Positions 3,516 to 19,970 of a stretch of DNA of 20,411 bases are shown here, piece by piece (position 1 is the first letter of the stretch; each line of letters opens with the position of its first letter). The notes beneath the pieces are model-generated. The model made no database searches and had not been told where the DNA came from. It was given only the letters and a program-made list of their open reading frames with translations. Origin of the DNA: Ignavibacteriales bacterium. Lineage in GTDB: Bacteria; Bacteroidota; Ignavibacteria; UBA10030; UBA6906. The position numbers and the translations under genes were made by a program. Location of the stretch: positions 1 through 20,411 of the forward strand of contig JBBIRR010000059.1 in assembly GCA_037441705.1 (NCBI GenBank), given 5' to 3'.

Positions 3516-5633
3516 ATGTACCGGCTTATGATGATAACCGCATTACTCTTTGCCCGGCTCGATCAGGCGTCTGCTCAGGAACAGCCGACACCGCAGCCCC
3601 CCAAGGCGAAAATTCAGATGACGCGCCTCGTAAAACATGGCCACGAACGCCGCGATTACTACTACTGGCTCCGCGAGCGTGATAATCCGGAAGTGATCGA
3701 GTACCTCAAGGCGGAGAATGCTTACACCGACGCCGTGATGGCGCCGTACAAGAATCTCGAAGAGAAACTCTACGCCGAGATGCTGGCGCGCATCAAACAA
3801 TCGGACCTTTCCGTTCCTTACAAACTCGATGACTACTACTATTACACACGCTACGAAGAAGGCAAGGAATATCCCATCTACTGCCGGCGACGGGGTTCGA
3901 TGGAAGCGCCCGAAGAGGTGATGATTGATGGGAATGCAATGGCGCGCGGACACGCCTACTTCGCAGTCGGAAGCACCGCCATCAGCTTCGGGCAGGATAT
4001 TCTTGCCTTTGCGGTTGACACCGTCGGACGGCGACTGTACACGATTCGCTTCAAGAATCTGACGACGGGTGAAATGCTTTCCGATGAAATTCGTTCCTCC
4101 ACGGCCAACATTGCATGGGCGAACGACAACCGCACGCTGTTCTACACGAAGCAAGATCCGACCACGCTGCGCCCGTTCCAGATCTATCGTCACACGCTCG
4201 GCACCGATCCTGCGCGTGATGTGCTTGTCTATGAAGAAAAGGACGAAACCTTCTCGTGTCACGTTTTTCGGACGAAGTCCAAGCAGTTCCTCATGATTGC
4301 TTCCACGCAAACGCTCAGCTCGGAGTATCGCTTCCTCGACGCAAACACGCCGGAAGGCGAGTTCAAAGTGTTTTTGCCGCGCGAACGCAACCACGAGTAT
4401 GCGGTTGACCATTTTGAAAATTACTTCTACATCCGGTCGAACGATCGCGCGAAAAATTTCCGTCTGATGCGCACACCCGTCGGCGATACGCGCAAGACCG
4501 CCTGGCGGAACGTCATTCTGCACCGCAAGAATGTGCTGCTGGAAGATTTCGAAATCTTTCGTGACTTCCTCGTGTTGACCGAACGAAAGAACGGCCTGCG
4601 TCAGCTTCGCGTTCTGCCGTGGATCGGTTCCGGCGAGCATTACATTGCGTTCGATGAACCGACCTACACCGTGGCGCTGGATGTGAACCCGGACTTCAAC
4701 ACGCGGCTCGTGCGCTTTCGCTATCAGTCGCTCGTGACACCCAACTCCGTGTACGACTACGACATGGCGGGCAAAACCCGGAAACTGCTGAAGCAGGATG
4801 AGGTGCTGGGCGGTTACGATCCGTCGCAGTATGAATCCGAGCGGCGGTACGCTCGCGCACAGGACGGCACGCTCGTTCCCATCTCGATGGTGTACAAGAA
4901 GGGAATGAAGAAGGATGGAACGAATCCGCTGCTGCTGTACGGGTACGGCTCGTACGGCATCAGCACGGACGCGACGTTTGCATCGTCGCGGTTGAGTTTG
5001 CTCGATCGCGGCTTCATTTACGCCATCGCGCACGTACGCGGCGGGCAGGAGTTGGGGCGTGATTGGTATGAGGATGGAAAACTCCTGAAGAAGAAGAACA
5101 CCTTCACCGATTTCATCGCGTGCGCAAGGTATCTGATCGACGAAAAGTACACCAATCCCGATAAGCTGTTTGCCATCGGCGGCAGCGCGGGCGGGCTGCT
5201 GATGGGCGCGGTGGTGAACATGGCGCCGCAGTGGTTCAAGGGCGTCGTAGCGCTTGTCCCGTTCGTCGATGTGGTGACCACGATGTTGGATGAGAGCATT
5301 CCGCTGACGACCGCCGAATACGATGAATGGGGAAACCCCAACGAGAAGAAGTACTACGACTACATGCTCTCCTACTCGCCCTATGACAACGTCGAAGCAA
5401 AGGCGTATCCCAACATGCTGGTGATGGCGGGCTTGCACGACTCGCAAGTCCAGTACTGGGAGCCGGCAAAGTGGGTGGCGAAGCTCCGCGCGATGAAAAC
5501 GGACAACAACCAGCTGCTGCTGAAGACCAACATGGAGGCGGGTCACAGCGGCGCCTCCGGCCGGTTCCGCAGGCTGCGCGAGACGGCTTTCCAGTATACG
5601 TTTCTGCTGCGGCTTGCCGGCATCACCGCATGA
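3516..5633 (+). CDS. ptrB: Oligopeptidase B (protease II, S9A)
   Basis: DYYYWLRER, LYGYGSYG, AHVRGGQELG, nucleophile motif GGSAGG, EYDEWGNP, HDSQVQYWEPAKWVAKLR and AGHSG. Start set at ATG 3516 (GAGGA SD, followed by a signal peptide) rather than 3333. Confidence 0.95.
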   Translation: MYRLMMITALLFARLDQASAQEQPTPQPPKAKIQMTRLVKHGHERRDYYYWLRERDNPEVIEYLKAENAYTDAVMAPYKNLEEKLYAEMLARIKQSDLSVPYKLDDYYYYTRYEEGKEYPIYCRRRGSMEAPEEVMIDGNAMARGHAYFAVGSTAISFGQDILAFAVDTVGRRLYTIRFKNLTTGEMLSDEIRSSTANIAWANDNRTLFYTKQDPTTLRPFQIYRHTLGTDPARDVLVYEEKDETFSCHVFRTKSKQFLMIASTQTLSSEYRFLDANTPEGEFKVFLPRERNHEYAVDHFENYFYIRSNDRAKNFRLMRTPVGDTRKTAWRNVILHRKNVLLEDFEIFRDFLVLTERKNGLRQLRVLPWIGSGEHYIAFDEPTYTVALDVNPDFNTRLVRFRYQSLVTPNSVYDYDMAGKTRKLLKQDEVLGGYDPSQYESERRYARAQDGTLVPISMVYKKGMKKDGTNPLLLYGYGSYGISTDATFASSRLSLLDRGFIYAIAHVRGGQELGRDWYEDGKLLKKKNTFTDFIACARYLIDEKYTNPDKLFAIGGSAGGLLMGAVVNMAPQWFKGVVALVPFVDVVTTMLDESIPLTTAEYDEWGNPNEKKYYDYMLSYSPYDNVEAKAYPNMLVMAGLHDSQVQYWEPAKWVAKLRAMKTDNNQLLLKTNMEAGHSGASGRFRRLRETAFQYTFLLRLAGITA

Positions 5634-5655
5634 GCCGAGCTGCGCACACATTACA

Positions 5656-6114
5656 ATGAGTCGTGCAGCAAACCATAGCGCTCCAGGAGCAAAGCCGTTG
5701 AATGCGCTCACACGCGGCCTGCTCATTGCGGCGGGCACACTCTCGCTTGCCATCGGCGTGGTCGGCGCGTTTGTGCCCGTGCTGCCAACCACGCCGTTCG
5801 TGCTTCTTGCGGCATTCTGTTACGTGCGCAGCTCGCAGAAGCTCTACGAGCGACTCATGCGCAGCCGCTTTGCCAACAAGCATGTTCACGGCGTGCTTGC
5901 GGGACACGGCATCGCGCTCTCCGTCAAGATTGTCTCGCTCGCAGTCTCTGCCGTCATGATCGGCTACGTGAGCGTGTTTGTCACGGAAAGCTTCATGGTG
6001 CGGATGCTGTTGGGATTGCTGTACATCGTGCAGTTGTTCTTCATGCTGAAGATCAAGACACTGAAACACCCGCTGCCGACCGCCGCGCAGAATGAGTCGT
6101 TAGAAAGAGTGTGA
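5656..6114 (+). CDS. ybaN: YbaN/DUF454 family inner-membrane protein
   Basis: IGVVGAFVPVLPTTPFVLLAAFCYVRSSQKLYERL is the family signature. Start taken at ATG 5656. Confidence 0.88.
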   Translation: MSRAANHSAPGAKPLNALTRGLLIAAGTLSLAIGVVGAFVPVLPTTPFVLLAAFCYVRSSQKLYERLMRSRFANKHVHGVLAGHGIALSVKIVSLAVSAVMIGYVSVFVTESFMVRMLLGLLYIVQLFFMLKIKTLKHPLPTAAQNESLERV

Positions 6115-6167
6115 GCAATACCGGCGCCCGCCAGCAATTGAACGTCACGACGTACGCGCGCGCACAC

Positions 6168-6225
6168 ACCGTCATGCTGAGCGCTGCTTTCCCAGCGCGA
6201 AGCATCCAGACCCGGTGAACATGAT
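6168..6225 (+). repeat. CGTC-tagged type A repeat plus 3' extension, copy 5
   Basis: accgtc-ATGCT-GA-GCGCTG-ctttcc-CAGCGC-GA-AGCAT-ccagacccggtgaacatgat, a 58-bp near-identical direct repeat of 6617-6674. Confidence 0.9.
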
Positions 6226-13720: not shown

Positions 13721-13753
13721 GAGGGCAGCGTATTGCGTGTGCACGCTGCCCTC
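13721..13753. other. Perfect 11-bp stem-loop downstream of the PUR-like gene (possible terminator or RNA stabiliser)
   Basis: GAGGGCAGCGT-attgcgtgtgc-ACGCTGCCCTC. No clear U-tract on the minus strand. Confidence 0.5.
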
Positions 13754-13771: not shown

Positions 13772-13999
13772 TCAGGCTTTTGCCGCTTCGGCCGCTTCTT
13801 CGACCGCCTTGCGGAATTGTTCGATCGTGTCGCCGAAAAATCGAACGGTCGAGCGCTTCTTCTCCTCGCCTTGCATGCTGTTCTCGGAGATCGAAAGATA
13901 CTTGTTGCCGTTCTTCGCCTCCTTCACGTCCACGAAGTACGTTGTCTTGCCCGACTTCAGCATGGTCGAGTAGAGCGAGTTCGTGTTTGCCTGCGTCAT
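13772..13999 (-). CDS. DUF3276 / PUR-repeat single-stranded nucleic-acid-binding protein
   Basis: LYSTMLKSGKTTYFVDVKEAKNGNKYLSISE...RSTVRFF...IEQFRKAV matches the PUR-repeat pattern. AGGAGG SD. Confidence 0.85.
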   Translation of the reverse strand: MTQANTNSLYSTMLKSGKTTYFVDVKEAKNGNKYLSISENSMQGEEKKRSTVRFFGDTIEQFRKAVEEAAEAAKA

Positions 14000-14043
14000 G
14001 ATGACCTCCTGTGGTTTGTGTGAGTTGTTGTTTGAAACCCCCT

Positions 14044-14073
14044 CTACCTATATAAACGAAATCAGGTAACAGC
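14044..14073 (-). promoter_or_regulatory. 30-bp conserved motif, copy upstream of the PUR-like gene (putative ECF promoter or operator)
   Basis: GCTGTTACCTGATTTCGTTTATATAGGTAG, 28/30 identical to 15813-15842. It overlaps the last codons of the peptidase gene. Confidence 0.7.
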
Positions 14074-14553
14074 CCCAGGCTTATGCTGGGAAAGCAGGCG
14101 GATTTTGAGAGCCATTGCTTCTTCGCTGACATCGAACAGGCGAGAAAGCGGGCCGGTGTGCTTGATCGTGGGCAGAAAAGACAGAAGCGTTTCGGTGGGT
14201 ATGAGAAGCTCCGAGGCGAATGCATCGGCCTCCCGGTTCAGCAGGGCGATACGCGCAGCACTGCAGGCGCGTTCCGGGGGGTGCTTCAGGACGACGTGGC
14301 CAATCTCGTGTGCCAGTGTGAAGCGCTGCCGGTGACGATGCTGGCGGCCGTTGATGCCGATGAGGCGGTGCACCGGACTGACAATGCCGGCGAACTCCAC
14401 CGCCACATCATAGAGACGCACGACGCGAAATCCCATCGCTTCCGCAATCCGCTCGATATTAACTGGAGGAGATGTATAGGCGCTGGCGCGCAGCAGTTCC
14501 AGCGCAGCGTGTCTACTCCGCTCGAACGTATCTGTCGAACGGTCCCGTACCAT
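14062..14553 (-). CDS. ImmA/IrrE-family Zn metallopeptidase (Peptidase M78)
   Basis: PPVNIERIAEAMG, IGING...RQRFTLAHEIGH (HExxH), READAFASELLIP and LFDVSEEAM. Start is ATG 14553 (TGATG overlap) or GTG 14556. Confidence 0.92.
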   Translation of the reverse strand: MVRDRSTDTFERSRHAALELLRASAYTSPPVNIERIAEAMGFRVVRLYDVAVEFAGIVSPVHRLIGINGRQHRHRQRFTLAHEIGHVVLKHPPERACSAARIALLNREADAFASELLIPTETLLSFLPTIKHTGPLSRLFDVSEEAMALKIRLLSQHKPGAVT

Positions 14554-15143
14554 CACTCACGCGACGATTGGAGGGTTGATAAGAGGTCGTTCAGCTTTTT
14601 CTCGTCCGAGGGCGGAAGAGGAAGATCGGCTCGGGTGTACAACTCGCGATACGCTTTCTCGAGAGCGAGCTTCTTCTTTCCACGTTTCTTTCCTTTGTAT
14701 CGGGCCAGCATGCCTCCCAATGCCGGCCGATATGCTACCAGGCGGCACGTTCTGCGGATGGTATCGGCAATCTCTTCGAAAGACATGTTGAGAAGCACCA
14801 TCAGCTTCTGCCACGCCGCGGCCGGGATTTTCAGCGGCGAGATGGCATCCTGCTCCATGAGTGTGTAGATGTTTTTCGTGACGCCGATGCGCGCGAAGAT
14901 CTCTTGCGGCTGCAATCCGCGGCTCCGCACGGATTTCAACAGGGCGCCAACGGTGAGCGGCATCGCTTTCTGCCCGCGTGCGAGAGCGCCTTCGAGACGC
15001 TCGATGAGGAAAGCCCGTTCTTGCGGCTGCACCTGAAGCCGCAGCGTTCGCCGCGCCACAGCCTTCTCGTACGCCCCGCGCGTGTGCACCAATCCTTCCA
15101 GCCAGGCAAGTCGAAGGAGTGCGTCAATGTTCTCGTTCTTCAT
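14553..15143 (-). CDS. Uncharacterised protein with a central XRE/Cro-like HTH, encoded in the anti-sigma position
   Basis: LTVGALLKSVRSRGLQPQEIFARIGVTKNIYTLMEQD resembles an XRE HTH, followed by a basic patch KGKKRGKKK. Overlaps the sigma gene by 20 nt and the peptidase start. Confidence 0.7.
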   Translation of the reverse strand: MKNENIDALLRLAWLEGLVHTRGAYEKAVARRTLRLQVQPQERAFLIERLEGALARGQKAMPLTVGALLKSVRSRGLQPQEIFARIGVTKNIYTLMEQDAISPLKIPAAAWQKLMVLLNMSFEEIADTIRRTCRLVAYRPALGGMLARYKGKKRGKKKLALEKAYRELYTRADLPLPPSDEKKLNDLLSTLQSSRE

Positions 15144-15804
15144 GCTGTGTCAGTTCCGGATAGTATTCTGCAAGGATGTTCACAAATTTCTTTCTCACCC
15201 GGGCGTGATAGACCTTCAGGTGTGAAACCGGCTTACCGGTGTACGAAGCGATTTCTTCGTAGGGGACGTCGAGCGCACGGCAGCGCAGCAACACACGCTC
15301 CCACGCCTCGAGCCGCTCCAGCGCGTCGGCGATTGCGGCAAGCTTGCCGACAGCACGGGTCGACTCTTCGTCCGCGTCGGAACCATCCGCGCTTTCCGGC
15401 TCCACGAGCGCATCCCGGTACTGTTGAAGGACGATGCGCGTCAGCTCACGGTCCGGCATCTCTGAGTCATCCTCTCGCTCCGTCACGATGTCGTCGTCGA
15501 AGCCGACCATACGCCCCCGGCGGGCCTGCAGCCGAACATGGTCCCGCACCTTATTTCGAAAGACCGTCATAACCCAGGCATGGAAATCTCCCTCGCCCCG
15601 CTGAAACGTGAACCCGTGGATTCCTTCCACCACCGCGAGCAGGACGTCGCTCACCACCTCCTCCGCGTCGTCCCTTCGAAGCGAGAATACCGACACGGCC
15701 TCACGAAGCAATACGCCCTGATAGCGATCGACCAGATGAGCACACGCCTCTCGTTTCCCCTCTTTCAGGTGCTGGACGAGCGCTTTCGGAGAGAGAGTCG
15801 GCAC
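15124..15804 (-). CDS. ECF-type RNA polymerase sigma-70 factor
   Basis: Region 2: DAEEVVSDVLLAVV...DFHAWVMTVFRNKVRDHVR. Acidic linker. Region 4: ALERLEAWERVLL...VPYEEIASYTGKPVSHLKVYHARVRKK. GTG start with GGAAGGG SD. Confidence 0.9.
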   Translation of the reverse strand: MPTLSPKALVQHLKEGKREACAHLVDRYQGVLLREAVSVFSLRRDDAEEVVSDVLLAVVEGIHGFTFQRGEGDFHAWVMTVFRNKVRDHVRLQARRGRMVGFDDDIVTEREDDSEMPDRELTRIVLQQYRDALVEPESADGSDADEESTRAVGKLAAIADALERLEAWERVLLRCRALDVPYEEIASYTGKPVSHLKVYHARVRKKFVNILAEYYPELTQHEEREH

Positions 15805-15812
15805 ATCCCTTC

Positions 15813-15842
15813 CTATCTATATAAACGAAAACAGGTAACAGC
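15813..15842 (-). promoter_or_regulatory. 30-bp conserved motif, copy upstream of the sigma gene (putative autoregulated promoter or operator)
   Basis: GCTGTTACCTGTTTTCGTTTATATAGATAG, ending 8 nt before the GTG start. Confidence 0.7.
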
Positions 15843-16095: not shown

Positions 16096-16836
16096 TCAGT
16101 TCGATTTAATGTTGCCACTGTTGAACCGCACCAATTCGTTCCAGTCAATTCTCCCGTCACGGCAGAACTGGTTTGAGAAGTCAGCCGTGAACTTGTTTAT
16201 CACAACAGCAAGCTCCTCTTCGTATCGCTGGTTGCGTTGCTTCGCTTGATGGCCCAGTGGTTCGATGATGTCCGTATAGAGATTCTTATTGCCACTGATA
16301 AAGTACCAGAACTCTTGCCCGCATATGCGAAGGTACTCGCCGGTGTCCACTGTTTTTCTTTTGCCGTAACAAGATGCTAACACAGGCTGTACCGCCTTGA
16401 CCGATTTCGATTGTTTGAGTACCTGGACTGCTTTCTTGAATCGATCTCTGAGGGCTGCATATTGCGAGCTATTGCCCCAGTTCACGCCAGACTTGATTGA
16501 AACGAGGTACACGACGCCGTCTTTCGAGAACTCCAAATCAATACCAGGTCCCGGTGATTTCTTACCATTGAGTGTTTTGCTGGGAATGAAGATGGCAAGC
16601 TCTTCAAGAAAGTTCCCGAAGAGCTCTTCCTCAGAGGAAGAAAGATACGCTTGCAGGAGAGACTCGATGAGCTTCTGTGCCGTGAGGATGTTCTTTGCCT
16701 TGAAGAGGTATGGATTCTTCTTCTGCAGGACTTCTCTCAGCTTGATCTTCTTGACTCTGTTGATTCGGCTTTCGTGAAACTCGCCAATGTGCTGATTGAC
16801 AAATTCTGTAACTTCTTCCAAGGATATGGATTTCAC
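16096..16836 (-). CDS. Type II restriction endonuclease, EcoO109I/PmeII-like PD-(D/E)xK family
   Basis: KKNPYLFKAKN, SSSEEELFGNFLEELAIF, GIDLEF...VSIKSGVNWGNSSQ and CGQEFWYFISG. GTGA overlap with the methyltransferase gene. Confidence 0.82.
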   Translation of the reverse strand: MKSISLEEVTEFVNQHIGEFHESRINRVKKIKLREVLQKKNPYLFKAKNILTAQKLIESLLQAYLSSSEEELFGNFLEELAIFIPSKTLNGKKSPGPGIDLEFSKDGVVYLVSIKSGVNWGNSSQYAALRDRFKKAVQVLKQSKSVKAVQPVLASCYGKRKTVDTGEYLRICGQEFWYFISGNKNLYTDIIEPLGHQAKQRNQRYEEELAVVINKFTADFSNQFCRDGRIDWNELVRFNSGNIKSN

Positions 16837-17789
16837 TCGAATAATTCTCCGTTCTGAGGTGGCTCGTGTTTGACTCGCTTCTCAGCTTGAGCACAAAAGT
16901 CCTTCAGAAGCTCAATGCCAATGTATCTGCGCCCTAGATGCTTTGCTGCCACAGCCGCCGTGCCAGAGCCCAGGAATGGATCGAGTACAACATCACCGGG
17001 TTTTGTGAATAGCTTGATGAACCATTTAGGAAGGGCCACGGGAAAAGCTGCACTGTGATTCTTGTTTCCGGACTCAGTCGCCAAGTGGAGAACGTTGTCC
17101 GGGTAGGCCATCTTTCGTCCCAACCAATTGGAGATGTTCTTTCCGAAGCCGCTGCCCACCTTTGATTCATCTCTTCGCTTGTCAGTGTCGCTCAGGTTTC
17201 TTAATCGAGTTTTGGCCCAATCGCCCATTGGGACCATTACGCTCTCTTGATACATCGAGAATTTCCGTTGTTTGTTGAATTGAAGACAGTGTTCCCAAGC
17301 ATCTCTGAACCTGTTCGGCCACTTACCCGGGTAAGTGTTCCGCTTGTGCCATATGTACTCCTCAGTCCAGAGCCATCCTTGCTTTCTCATTTCAAGGATC
17401 AACTCCAAAACGTATGTCTGCCGTTCACCGTTAGACACGCCCTCCTTAATGTTGAGTATGAATGTGCCGGACGGCTTTAGGACCCGTTTGAGTTCAAGAG
17501 CTATTGGCAAAAACCATTGAACATATCGGTCGGGATGGATACCACCATATGAATTCTTGCGTTTGTCTGCATAAGGCGGTGATGTCACAATCAGGTCAAC
17601 AAACTCATCGGGGAAGGTGCGAAGAACTTCAAGAGCATCTCCGCAAATGATCGAGTCCAGTGGAAGTTGCTTCTGTGTTGAGGAAACACTGACGACATAA
17701 AGTCCCTCTTGCTCCCGAACCTTGGACTTGACAAAGCTGAATTTCTTGCCAGCTAGGTTGATTCCCTTCATATTTCCGATCTTGTGCAT
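16833..17789 (-). CDS. Beta-class amino DNA methyltransferase (probably N4-cytosine)
   Basis: IICGDALEVL, DLIVTSPPY (motif IV) preceding HSAAFP and VVLDPFLGSGT (motif I), then YIGIEL. Start is uncertain (17789, 17771 or later). Confidence 0.93.
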   Translation of the reverse strand: MHKIGNMKGINLAGKKFSFVKSKVREQEGLYVVSVSSTQKQLPLDSIICGDALEVLRTFPDEFVDLIVTSPPYADKRKNSYGGIHPDRYVQWFLPIALELKRVLKPSGTFILNIKEGVSNGERQTYVLELILEMRKQGWLWTEEYIWHKRNTYPGKWPNRFRDAWEHCLQFNKQRKFSMYQESVMVPMGDWAKTRLRNLSDTDKRRDESKVGSGFGKNISNWLGRKMAYPDNVLHLATESGNKNHSAAFPVALPKWFIKLFTKPGDVVLDPFLGSGTAAVAAKHLGRRYIGIELLKDFCAQAEKRVKHEPPQNGELFE

Positions 17790-18163: not shown

Positions 18164-19792
18164 TCATCTTCCGAGCAGCAAAACTACGCGTTCCAAAATA
18201 CGTTGTCGGCGGTTCGTAACGAATGTCTCGAAACCATCTGGCTTCAGTTCATCTTTCTCGATCAGGTAGTCAGTAGCTAGTTCTTCTGCAGGGACACCCT
18301 CGAAGTACTCCCAAGGTTCATCATCACTCTTTCGGATGTTACGTAGCTTTCCCAGGAAGGCAAGATTGCCAATATCGTTTACGAGATGTGGATGTGTGTG
18401 AACGTATTTTGACCGTGGGAATATGTGGTCAACTTCAGCTCGTTCTTGCCACGACAGAGTTTCTCTACGGATTTTGGGCTGGACGAGATTGAGCGCTAAA
18501 GCTGTCTTTGCATTGAGCATGTCGAGGGATGAAGAAACGTAGTGCCAAGTCTGCCGCTGTTCTATAACGCGCAAGAGTGCATCTAGGGGTAGTGCACGAC
18601 CGTTGTATGGTCTTAACTTTTCACGAAGATAACGGATCCTTGCTTCTGGTCGGCGCAAGAATTCGTTGAAGAGTAGGAAGTAAATAAACGTGCGAAGCGG
18701 TCTTCGCTGGTCGTCTGGGATCGAGTGGTTATGTTGATGGTAGACGTAATAGATGATAGGAAAGAGTGTAGCCACTGGATTCAGGAGAGACGCAGAGAGA
18801 ATGCCAACGTCAGGACTTCGGACGAAATCAATAGTATTTCGCATACTGCGGGCGAAACCATCAAAGACTTGCTCTATGACGGCCCAGTGGCGTTTTATGT
18901 TGTCAACTTCGTACTTCGGGGGAGCATCGGCAACAGTCAACAGCCCGCGGATGATGAAATCCTTGTCAATTCCGAGCGGGCTGTGGCGTTCGATGTCGGC
19001 TACAAGTTGGTCGAAACTAACTCTTGCAGATGACCAATGTCGTTTTATGATGGAAAACATCAGATCCGATCGGCTGAGTCGAGTGCCGCCAGTGTTGACT
19101 CTTACAAAAATATCGAGCACTTCGTCTATGGTTCTCGCAGCGGCTTCGTTGGGGGCATCATGATCGATGTATTCTACTGGTACTAAGTCTGATTGCTGCA
19201 TAACCGCGCGAAGTCGTCGCATATTAGCGGCGGCGGTTGTTGCCTCAGTATCTTGAAGGGGAATTTGACTAATAATGCGTGCAATCTCTTGTTCTTCGAT
19301 TCGTAGTGACCAGCTAACTATCTCGGATACGAGAATGTGGCGACGTGGTCGGTTCGAATCATCGGGTTTCCAGAAGTAGAAGCGGAATGCACCCGACTCG
19401 CCGTCCTCATCTTCCGAAACTGCCGCCGACCCGCTTGTTACATCGAAGTAGAGCCGCCTGCCTTCGTGTGAGCCGTAAGTGCCGATCAAGAAAGATTGGA
19501 GACGTTGTTGTCCATCGAGTACCATTTCAAGGGGTTTGCCTTTGTCTTTAGTCTTCACGACGAATGTTTGCCCGGGCTGGTGGTCAACTACGAAATCGCG
19601 ATAAGCGACATCTAAGTAACGGGTTTCCCAGATGAGCAGTGAACCGAATGGATACCCTCTCATCAAAGAATCAAAGAGAAGTCGAATCTGGTCGCGATCC
19701 CAGACGAAGTCGCGTTGGATGTCTGGGAGAACGAGCGTGTGATCATTGTGAATTCTGTTGAGAAGGTGCATTATGGAAGTGGACTGGGCCAT
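18164..19792 (-). CDS. DUF262 (ParB/Srx) + C-terminal HNH (DUF1524-like) protein, GmrSD-type restriction family
   Basis: LVLPDIQRDFVW, GYPFGSLLIW, VLDGQQRL and IFVRVNTGGTRLS, with C-terminal VDHIFP...NDIGNLAFLGKLRNIRKSD. Start set at ATG 19792 because the longer ORF start lies inside the attC-like site. Confidence 0.9.
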   Translation of the reverse strand: MAQSTSIMHLLNRIHNDHTLVLPDIQRDFVWDRDQIRLLFDSLMRGYPFGSLLIWETRYLDVAYRDFVVDHQPGQTFVVKTKDKGKPLEMVLDGQQRLQSFLIGTYGSHEGRRLYFDVTSGSAAVSEDEDGESGAFRFYFWKPDDSNRPRRHILVSEIVSWSLRIEEQEIARIISQIPLQDTEATTAAANMRRLRAVMQQSDLVPVEYIDHDAPNEAAARTIDEVLDIFVRVNTGGTRLSRSDLMFSIIKRHWSSARVSFDQLVADIERHSPLGIDKDFIIRGLLTVADAPPKYEVDNIKRHWAVIEQVFDGFARSMRNTIDFVRSPDVGILSASLLNPVATLFPIIYYVYHQHNHSIPDDQRRPLRTFIYFLLFNEFLRRPEARIRYLREKLRPYNGRALPLDALLRVIEQRQTWHYVSSSLDMLNAKTALALNLVQPKIRRETLSWQERAEVDHIFPRSKYVHTHPHLVNDIGNLAFLGKLRNIRKSDDEPWEYFEGVPAEELATDYLIEKDELKPDGFETFVTNRRQRILERVVLLLGR

Positions 19793-19838
19793 ATGATGCT
19801 CTCGTTGCAGGTTATGATTCGTTGGTTCGGCTGCATGG

Positions 19839-19970
19839 CGCATAACGTATTGAGTGCTCACGCAGCGTCAGCGCATGGAGTCCACCGCAGGCGGACGCAA
19901 TAAGCTGACGTTGAGCGACATCTATCAAAAGCTATAACTGATGGAGCGCCGTGAACACGAGTGTTATGCG
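19839..19970 (-). mobile_element. Integron attC-like recombination site (132 bp)
   Basis: Minus strand CGCATAAC-actc-GTGTTCACG ... CGTGAGCAC-tcaatac-GTTATGCG: perfect 8-bp R''/R' boxes, unpaired asymmetric spacers, 9-bp L boxes with one G-T pair, and an inner stem 19863-19872/19904-19913. Confidence 0.72.

Follow-up and report, generated by a model that had tools for sequence, protein, structure and literature searches.

A candidate self-inducing cassette of an ECF-type sigma factor, a helix-turn-helix protein and an M78 peptidase in an Ignavibacteriales bacterium

What does a small sigma factor have to do with a helix-turn-helix (HTH) protein and a peptidase whose genes overlap its own? The question is raised by a 20,411-nt stretch of DNA from an Ignavibacteriales bacterium (contig JBBIRR010000059.1, positions 1-20,411, assembly GCA_037441705.1), the whole of which is referred to here as the window. 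Four genes follow one another on its minus strand, encoding a sigma factor of the ECF (extracytoplasmic function) type (15124-15804; 226 aa), a 196-aa protein with an XRE-type HTH (14553-15143; hereafter the middle protein), an M78 peptidase (14062-14556; 164 aa) and a PUR/DUF3276 protein (13772-13999; 75 aa), the last preceded by its own Shine-Dalgarno sequence, GGAGG. All four open reading frames were confirmed where a preliminary description of this DNA had placed them. We lean towards reading the locus as a portable cassette that induces itself: the M78 peptidase would cut a chimeric anti-sigma factor, probably on DNA damage, and so free the ECF-type sigma factor for the transcription of the PUR gene and of other targets. 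Three features go beyond the preliminary description: a shared promoter-like motif, recombinase and recA genes as likely targets, and a predicted sigma-binding domain at the N-terminus of the middle protein.

A conserved gene trio and its predicted sigma-holding domain

The order sigma-middle-M78 is a real, conserved and lineage-restricted unit. Relatives were scanned with one genome per species, which yielded 17 loci from metagenome-assembled genomes titled Ignavibacteria, Bacteroidota or 'Chlorobi', at 39-73% identity. By tblastn, the sigma gene precedes the middle gene in all 16 loci with upstream DNA, and the peptidase gene follows it in all 16 with downstream DNA; the gene-neighbourhood check suggested earlier thus finds the trio together in every locus where the contig allows. 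The PUR gene follows in 13 of the 17 loci, being absent from L012 and L020, while the contigs of the other two end too early to show it either way. Sigma and middle genes occur together in 16 of 41 relatives, the sigma gene alone in one (G031) and neither in 24. A sample across the whole phylum contained the middle gene in 12 of its 401 genomes, each time with the same gene order. The overlaps of the trio, already noticed in the preliminary description, measure 20 nt between the sigma and middle genes and 4 nt between the middle and M78 genes (1 nt with an ATG start), and the former is kept in 15 of 16 related loci.

The sigma factor matches Pfam Sigma70_r2 (E = 1.2e-9) and, just below the cut-off, the region 4 family r4_2 (1.7e-5; 24.8 bits against 25.7), and it passes the NCBIfam sigma70-ECF model TIGR02937 with 67.7 bits (cut-off 42.9). 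Regions 2 and 4 are separated by an acidic linker of about 55 residues in an alignment of 16 orthologues (alignment A3), and region 3 has no Pfam match. Judged from these domains, the protein has the architecture of ECF (group 4) sigma factors, with regions 2 and 4 and without region 3 or 1.1. None of the more specific ECF equivalog or subfamily models of NCBIfam reached its cut-off, and the score against NF041236, the RpoE-like protein of type III-E CRISPR systems, lies far under its cut-off (36.2 bits against 100). In three related loci with sigma genes of the G001/G006 type (L007, L030, L052), no in-frame ATG, GTG or TTG lies between the upstream motif and the conserved N-terminus, hinting at a start codon outside the canonical set or at a fault in the assembly.

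The middle protein comes from a family that appears small and isolated in sequence searches. Phmmer returned 28 matches among 1.84 billion representative proteins and a profile search 44 clusters (the weakest at 2e-46); at 90% identity the family comprises 29 clusters, all with members of about 190-211 aa. No Pfam, NCBIfam or PADLOC family was matched at E up to 0.1, and a precomputed PF12844 match exists for 3 of 29 relatives. AlphaFold2, given a 41-sequence alignment, produced a model with a pLDDT (predicted local distance difference test) of 86.1. It begins with helices at residues 2-15, 24-31 and 40-56, which make up a three-helix candidate anti-sigma domain (residues 1-58; 14970-15143), continues with an XRE/cI-type HTH (residues 62-120; 14784-14960; pLDDT >90) and a long helix (122-149), and closes with a predicted basic loop and two helices, 155-171 and 178-195 (residues 150-196; 14553-14696).

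In structural comparison, the best matches of the HTH include the known substrates of M78 peptidases, without singling one out. VIA-align pairs it best with the N-terminal domain (NTD) of CapH (7t5u_A; Z 7.8, root-mean-square deviation 2.2, 64 aligned residues), followed by the DdrO NTD (Z 6.8) and ImmR (Z 6.4), which are statistically tied with CapH among many XRE proteins; Foldseek matches are XRE proteins only. Searches by Foldseek and VIA-align with the whole model, in which HTH relatives fill the lists, gave no structural match outside the HTH. A profile search of the Protein Data Bank gave XRE-type hints only, at E 0.06 or worse, DdrO showed no sequence match at E up to 10, and an Atlas search with residues 1-60 returned no usable match. 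The known anti-sigma families (zf-HC2, RskA and others) do not match the middle protein in sequence, and it has no membrane span.

The evidence for a sigma-holding function comes from co-folding. With the sigma factor (16-row alignment) and the middle protein (41 rows), the interface score ipSAE reaches 0.87 (median of three runs), against a best of 0.00 for the controls (n = 3). At least 97% of contacts are common to the runs, and the partner pLDDT is at least 76. On the middle protein the predicted contacts involve residues 4-58, on the sigma factor residues 13-102 (region 2) and 151-211 (region 4), an arrangement that corresponds to the sandwich binding of class I anti-sigma domains. The earlier proposal that the HTH protein holds the sigma factor like an anti-sigma is thus upheld at the level of prediction, with the contact assigned to the N-terminal 58 residues. 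Such binding would be inhibitory, blocking access to the polymerase core. Two reservations tell against leaning too hard on this score: the calibration behind it, in which 116 of 157 solved complexes attain this mark as against 2 of 215 mismatched pairs, is only roughly valid here, own alignments having been used, and the score may draw on the model's general knowledge of sigma/anti-sigma complexes.

The peptidase, its candidate cut site and the proposed switch

The third gene of the trio encodes a protein with a clear M78 signature (PF06114, 3.2e-19; 69.4 bits, cut-off 22), and its best PADLOC model is capP (2.5e-21), matched over profile positions 6-157 of 242. The zinc-binding motif reads HEIGH at residues 83-87 (H83-E84-x-x-H87; codons at 14296-14310). 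That the preliminary description saw an HExxH peptidase here agrees with the invariance of H83, E84, H87 and E109 in all 15 orthologues aligned (alignment A5). An XRE-HTH gene adjoins the M78 gene in all 16 loci with downstream DNA, and the peptidase would cut the middle protein. C98 is also invariant, 11 residues after H87 and 11 before E109. The cysteine switch of CapP, C113, lies between H100 and E129 (Lau et al. 2022), so that the relative position of C98 provides a lead towards a similar switch. Elsewhere in the same genome, a second M78 domain (37.8 bits) is found inside a 521-aa open frame (G000:C1 326679-327059, plus strand).

Where would the cut fall? The preliminary description had pointed to the segment GGMLARYKG after the HTH, and its core has proved to be strictly kept: all 28 sequences of one alignment share L146-A147-R148-Y149 (codons at 14697-14708), and R148 does not vary in any of 41. 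The four residues stand at the end of the long helix 122-149, ahead of the basic loop and the two C-terminal helices. In CapH, cleavage falls between F82 and R83, within the helix that opens the C-terminal domain, and the R83A variant is left uncut (Lau et al. 2022, 10.1101/2022.04.27.489752); LARY is a candidate cut site because it occupies the same relative place. By analogy with CapH and DdrO, residues 150-196 would then possibly be a dimerisation tail.

Taken together, these elements suggest the following switch. At rest, the N-terminal three-helix domain of the middle protein would be wedged between regions 2 and 4 of the sigma factor, which could not then join RNA polymerase, while the rest of the middle protein, an XRE HTH and a helical tail bearing LARY, would constitute a substrate of the CapH/DdrO/ImmR type. 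On a stress signal, the co-translated M78 peptidase would cut the middle protein, the anti-sigma would be destabilised and the sigma factor freed. The latter would transcribe from promoters of the form TGT(T/A)ACC-N5-TCGTT, giving four outputs: its own operon, and hence positive feedback; the PUR-type single-strand-binding protein; unlinked recombinase genes of the integron-integrase type; and, in some genomes, recA, by way of a thpR-internal site. The signal is most likely DNA damage or single-stranded DNA (ssDNA), because the characterised M78/XRE pairs (IrrE, CapP, ImmA) respond to one or the other, because elsewhere both integron integrases and recA belong to the SOS genes (Cambray et al. 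2011, PMC3108266) and because the PUR protein, by its fold, would bind single strands.

Several properties of the proteins weigh against this sequence of events. As far as its sequence tells, the 164-aa peptidase is the peptidase domain alone, without the linker and C-terminal GAF domain that together form the ssDNA-binding groove of CapP, and sensing of ssDNA by the peptidase itself therefore cannot be assumed. Moreover, cleavage at LARY (residue 147/148) would spare the predicted sigma-binding domain at the N-terminus, and release of the sigma factor would then call for an extra step, conceivably degradation of the fragment or loss of dimer avidity.

The shared motif and the genes it precedes

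If the sigma factor is freed, which promoters does it read? Two genes of the cassette, those for the sigma factor and the PUR protein, are preceded by the same bipartite motif, TGT(T/A)ACC-N5-TCGTT. Copy 1 (15813-15842, minus strand) lies directly upstream of the sigma gene, and copy 2 (14044-14073, minus strand) overlaps the last M78 codons, 72 nt upstream of the PUR start codon. The two form a 30-nt direct repeat with 28 of 30 positions identical, and none of 100 shuffles gave two matches. Across the window and the 17 related loci, TGTTACC-N5-xCGTT occurs at 30 sites, all on the coding strand, 17 of them before a sigma gene (the window and all 16 loci with a sigma gene) and 13 before a PUR gene (the window and 12 of the 13 loci with one; the PUR gene of L011 has no motif). 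Conservation at these sites extends beyond the search pattern to T10-T12, to TA at positions 25-26 (26 of 30 each) and to G30. In one genome (G016), the PUR gene and the cassette lie on different contigs, and a motif copy is found 325 nt before the start of the PUR gene. A simple sigma-70 promoter scan found no site ahead of either the sigma or the PUR gene. In G031, which has the sigma and PUR genes but neither of the other two, the motif is retained with the sigma gene. This sigma factor would be the one that reads the motif.

The spacing of the parts is peculiar. In copy 1, TGTTACC-N5-TCGTT is followed by TA about 9 nt further, and the GTG start codon of the sigma gene comes 36 nt after the first T. 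The same distance is 34-37 nt in 12 of 14 sites preceding sigma genes in the relatives' genomes and the window, which implies that the sigma mRNA is leaderless or nearly so. The PUR leader, in contrast, is 67-79 nt long and carries GGAGG. The first box resembles ECF -35 elements (AAC-type) and CGTT an ECF -10 element (CGT-type), but in characterised ECF promoters these are about 16-17 nt apart. Here TGTTAC and CGTT are separated by about 7 nt, which speaks against a simple assignment as -35 and -10; TTCGTT could be an operator. The arrangement does not conform to an autoregulated ECF promoter: the motif precedes the cassette's own sigma gene in 17 of 17 cases, with boxes that look like ECF elements, but the spacing is not that of an ECF promoter (7 nt).

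The geometry could be understood in two ways. TGTTAC may be a normal -35 element, with the weakly conserved TA region at positions 25-30 as the -10 element and transcription starting at the sigma start codon; TTCGTT would then be conserved as part of the spacer and might serve the HTH as an operator. Alternatively, TTCGTT may be the -10 element, with the start at the conserved TA and the first box at about -24. The fixed distance from motif to start codon favours the former. The first box varies between subfamilies (TGTTACC, TGTCAC, and TGTAACC in place of TGTTACC in the f9 cassette), whereas TTCGTT is constant, and this fits either the latter or an operator for the HTH. To our knowledge, a first box at -24 is known only from sigma-54. 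A sigma-54 promoter was considered for this spacing and set aside: the GG and GC doublets of its consensus are absent. The promoter geometry could prove to be the more unusual feature of the cassette, the other parts being of known kinds (an ECF sigma factor, an anti-sigma-like domain, an XRE/M78 pair and a PUR repeat), and the box spacing is in any case a separate, directly testable puzzle of promoter recognition.

The constancy of TTCGTT also bears on a different role for the middle protein. It might act mainly as a repressor of the DdrO/CapH kind: its HTH would bind TTCGTT, the peptidase would derepress, the sigma factor would give specificity through the first box, and the contact between middle protein and sigma factor would be secondary or part of a double lock. 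CapH and DdrO do act as such repressors (for CapH, see Lau et al. 2022), and the HTH keeps an intact fold and good conservation, with N91 and I101-S102-P103-L104 invariant (alignment A1). TTCGTT is constant across subfamilies whose sigma factors can barely be aligned, while residues 72-184 of the middle protein still align, and with TGTTAC as a normal -35 element it would sit in the spacer, where operators are commonly found. We nevertheless judge this alternative unlikely. The motif is not palindromic; nothing upstream of it is conserved (at most 0.3 bits at positions -10 to -2); the full motif stands before the sigma gene in G031, a genome rated 100% complete in which no middle protein was found, although this is one genome; and the high-confidence predicted interface with both sigma domains would be left unexplained.

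As a side observation, positions 27-33 of the motif, just after the TA, are G-rich on the coding strand (e.g. TAGAGGGGG) at sigma, PUR and integrase sites alike. PUR proteins prefer purine-rich single strands, and feedback of the PUR protein at its own promoters through this stretch is conceivable.

Beyond the cassette itself, a position weight matrix (PWM) scan of the whole 3.83-Mb genome found three strong sites, scoring 46.2, 43.2 and 37.0, with the next best at 16.3. The third lies 65 nt upstream of a gene for a 291-aa tyrosine recombinase resembling integron integrases (G000:C47, L003 587-1459, minus strand), which scores 223.3 bits against TIGR02249 (cut-off 265) and 225.7 against NF040815 (cut-off 220). 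The exact pattern has 51 matches in 19 of 41 genomes, against 24 for the reversed pattern, meaning that about half of the raw matches are at background level, a further point against too generous a regulon. Sorted by downstream gene and PWM score, which covered 47 of the 51, the matches comprise 14 before sigma genes, 11 before PUR genes, 6 that precede genes for tyrosine recombinases, 4 within thpR ahead of recA and 4 others with scores of at least 24 (L037, L061 and two in L040), while 8 with scores of 14 or less are taken as chance. The two motif-like sites of L040 (G016:C16, at ~14586 and ~14750) are 164 nt apart, the better scoring 24.3, and have only short open reading frames downstream.

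Of the six recombinase sites in this count, five score 41.2-46.5 and one 23.6. Three of the seven motif-linked recombinases pass the integron-integrase cut-off of TIGR02249 (432.7 bits in L056, 450.2 in L057 and 458.6 in L065); the other four, the C47 gene among them, fall under it, and three of these four pass NF040815 (XerA/integron-integrase). A site before a recombinase gene raises the thought that the locus is instead an XRE/M78 toxin-antitoxin pair, or the ImmR/ImmA-like immunity region of a mobile element controlling its own integrase, much as ImmR/ImmA control the excision of ICEBs1. There is indeed a weak match to the NCBIfam family of the spr1629 repressor/antitoxin (32.8 bits, cut-off 335). 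We regard either version as very improbable. The recombinase genes lie on contigs other than that of the cassette, several per genome, and three of them are of the integron type; the sigma gene is obligatory (16 of 16); the cassette sits in a conserved chromosomal neighbourhood with thioredoxin and RmuC genes; and viral contigs gave no relative (19 pattern matches, 0 confirmed), and a plasmid collection no tblastn match.

The link to recA belongs to the favoured reading, that of a sigma factor freed by cleavage of its holder. In four relatives (G002, G004, G015, G016), a motif with a PWM score of 20.3-39.1 lies inside thpR, within sequence coding for L-L-P-E/Q-I-V. All four use the codons TTA-CCT-xAA-ATC-GTT, an identity that suggests selection on the DNA, although sites in coding sequence could partly reflect the codons themselves, which counts against their use as evidence. 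In G002 and G004, a nucleotidyltransferase gene stands between thpR and recA. Also unfavourable is the situation in the genome of the window, where the cinA-thpR(ligT)-recA cluster (G000:C27 14511-17580, plus strand) has no motif, its best PWM score being below 0. The same genome encodes a 216-aa protein with a CI-type HTH and Peptidase_S24 (region G000:C19 4693-5058; L021 1495-2145, minus strand), flanked by DUF72 and DUF3224 genes and not by phage genes, which scores 69.5 bits against canonical LexA (TIGR00498, cut-off 110.95). Non-canonical LexA has been described in Bacteroidetes (PMC8565304). This protein could be such a LexA, in which case the cassette need not be the main damage regulator of the cell.

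The boldest form of the favoured reading brings promoter and regulon together. In this form, an ECF-type sigma factor recognises a -35-like TGT[T/A/C]AC and a -10-like CGTT one helical turn closer than in any characterised promoter of the sigma-70 family (a -24/-12 geometry otherwise known from sigma-54 only) and is freed by M78 cleavage of a chimeric anti-sigma/HTH protein; the whole would be a portable damage-inducible cassette running an SOS-like regulon (PUR ssDNA-binding protein, integron integrases, recA) in Ignavibacteria-like bacteria, parallel to or instead of LexA. We hold this full combination to be distinctly unlikely.

Cargo, known systems and chromosomal setting

What does the PUR gene contribute? 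Its product matches PF11680 (DUF3276; 4.1e-9, 37.1 bits, cut-off 23.1) and, below cut-off, PurA (2.2e-4). The model (pLDDT 74.6) shows strands at 8-16, 19-27, 33-43 and 46-55 and a helix at 59-74, the predicted topology of a single PUR repeat (beta-beta-beta-beta-alpha). Foldseek ranks Borrelia Pur-alpha first (3nm7; E 1.4e-4, template modelling score 0.70), followed by human and fly PUR-alpha, and the modelled protein would thus bind single-stranded nucleic acid. Among 13 cassette-linked orthologues, identity is 57-91% (alignment A4), as compared with 24% for a paralogue in the same genome. This second DUF3276 gene (G000:C5 92443-92664, minus strand), which scores 103 bits against 35 for the PUR protein of the window, is probably, by its sequence, a housekeeping copy.

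Sister cassettes clarify the position of the PUR gene. Three loci (G213, G120, G397) have overlapping genes for a sigma factor of 224-234 aa, a 216-218-aa protein and an M78 peptidase of 167-172 aa. Relative to the window, the sigma factors are barely alignable, the middle proteins are about 25% identical over residues 72-184 and the peptidases about 40% identical. Each locus has exactly two copies of TGTCAC-N6-TTCGTT, one before the sigma gene and one after the peptidase gene, ahead of cargo that differs from locus to locus. The M78 gene is followed by a DUF2188 gene in G213, by 4HFCP_synth and then DUF6602 in G120, and by multiubiquitin, a ThiF/DUF6791 E1-like gene and DUF6527 in G397, where the cargo spans 4231-6212 on the plus strand (L087, G397:C1) and the motif copy lies 24 nt before the first possible ATG. 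Because the trio and the two motif copies are kept while the cargo changes, the general design is motif, sigma, anti-sigma/HTH, M78, motif, cargo, and the PUR gene is the cargo in the family of the window.

This bears on the two roles that had been offered for the PUR protein. As an output it fits well, the motif found ahead of the sigma gene having a second copy ahead of the PUR gene; as a feedback sponge or sensor it is not supported, and the unrelated genes that fill its position in the sister cassettes argue for cargo. For the same reasons, its own promoter copy and the unrelated cargo of the sisters, we set aside the PUR protein as a trans-acting ssDNA sensor for the GAF-less peptidase. 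A minimal cassette is found in G031:C1 (L028, 600-1501, minus strand), with the motif, a gene for a 217-aa sigma factor and a PUR gene overlapping the end of the latter; in this 100%-complete genome, neither the middle gene nor the M78 gene of the cassette was found.

How new is this arrangement? The preliminary description knew of no four-part system of this layout. That claim stands in part: sigma factors beside capH/capP are already in print, in 24 CBASS (cyclic-oligonucleotide-based antiphage signalling system) loci with an uncharacterised sigma70-family member, together with DUF2188 and E1-like cargo beside CapH/CapP-like pairs (Lau et al. 2022, bioRxiv 10.1101/2022.04.27.489752), while the role of the sigma factor was not studied there, as far as the available part of that work goes. 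The available text of the ECF reclassification paper mentions no M78, IrrE or Xre, and the available part of its supplement no M78, PF06114 or DUF3276. The literature at hand, that paper included and in part only, has no description of a sigma-binding N-terminal domain on an HTH protein, of the duplicated promoter, of PUR, integrase or recA targets, or of the unusual box spacing.

The closest relatives are CapH/CapP (Lau et al. 2022; Calloji et al. 2026, bioRxiv 10.64898/2026.05.16.725639), with which the cassette shares an M78 gene beside that of an XRE-HTH protein with a helical C-terminal tail, a hydrophobic-Arg motif in the helix before this tail (LARY here, F82-R83 in CapH) and a conserved cysteine between HExxH and the third zinc ligand, in line with the best PADLOC model and the best structural match of the HTH. 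It differs in that the peptidase has no linker or GAF domain, the HTH protein is extended at its N-terminus by a domain of about 58 residues with predicted binding to the sigma factor, the genes are co-directional with the cargo and not divergent, the cargo is a PUR gene, and the motif also marks unlinked recombinase genes.

IrrE(PprI)/DdrO of Deinococcus is likewise a chromosomal pair of an M78 peptidase and an XRE protein cut in its C-terminal domain. DdrO targets include ssDNA-binding proteins and the cinA-ligT-recA operon of Deinococcus, and the order cinA-thpR-recA recurs in the genome of the window, with the motif inside thpR in four relatives. However, the Deinococcus switch has no sigma factor, DdrO is a palindrome-binding repressor and IrrE has a GAF-like domain. 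ECF systems in which proteolysis removes a class I anti-sigma with a cytoplasmic domain (RseA and RsiW, for example) resemble the cassette in a sigma factor with regions 2 and 4 only, a partner gene directly downstream and translationally coupled, a helical N-terminal domain of the partner (here predicted) between regions 2 and 4, and a motif before the sigma factor's own gene. In contrast to them, the partner here has no anti-sigma Pfam match and no membrane span but includes an XRE HTH as a fused domain, the part of the protease would fall to a dedicated, operon-encoded M78 enzyme, and the boxes lie some 10 bp closer than in ECF promoters.

A protease-cut sigma holder also has a parallel in Craspase-Csx30-RpoE of type III-E CRISPR systems, where an ECF-type sigma factor is held by a soluble protein and a dedicated protease cleaves this holder; the cleavage proposed here and the weak match to NF041236 recall it. 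There, however, the protease is caspase-like and not of the M78 family, the sigma holder is unrelated, and a CRISPR locus is involved, of which there is none here. Finally, LexA sites precede integron integrase genes and recA (Cambray et al. 2011), as the motif does here, with the difference that the LexA site is a repressor operator and the motif a non-palindromic sequence common to these genes and the sigma factor's own.

Two control principles are thus apparently fused in one small protein, the sequestration of a sigma factor by an anti-sigma and the cleavage of an XRE regulator by an M78 peptidase, as in IrrE/DdrO, ImmA/ImmR and CapP/CapH. If this is true, it would explain the uncharacterised sigma factors beside capH/capP in defence islands, would offer a LexA-independent route from DNA damage to integron integrases and a bacterial PUR protein, and would equip a poorly studied lineage with a compact, self-amplifying and orthogonal cassette for induction, its promoter being defined.

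The surroundings of the cassette invite one more explanation. Upstream of it, on the same strand, are genes for an EcoO109I-type restriction endonuclease (PF14511, 1.2e-75) and an N6/N4 DNA methylase (1.3e-44), together at 16096-17789, and for a 565-aa HEC-05-like protein (18164-19861; PADLOC 6.1e-80). The trio might therefore be a CapH/CapP-style regulator of these defence genes. Such regulators adjoin many defence operons (Lau et al. 2022), the capP and HEC-05-like PADLOC matches are both strong, and one sister cassette drives a multiubiquitin/E1 operon. Yet the restriction and methylase genes recur in 0 of the 17 related loci, the conserved downstream neighbours being thioredoxin (5 loci) and RmuC (7). 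The restriction and methylase genes also lie upstream of the cassette, in a stretch lower in G+C (0.48-0.50 against 0.55-0.59), and neither of the two motif copies, the only ones in the window, precedes them or the HEC-05-like gene. A role in their control is highly improbable in our view, and the stretch looks like an inserted defence islet, which none of the 17 related loci has. The position next to restriction systems, stressed in the preliminary description, is accordingly accurate, while the implied link is not borne out.

At the other end of the cassette, a G+C-rich stem-loop lies just past the PUR stop codon (13721-13753, minus strand). It was not picked up by a simple terminator scan. 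Its predicted RNA fold has an energy of -35.5 kcal/mol (z -3.05), equalled in 3 of 200 shuffles, and the element is terminator-like, though without a T run.

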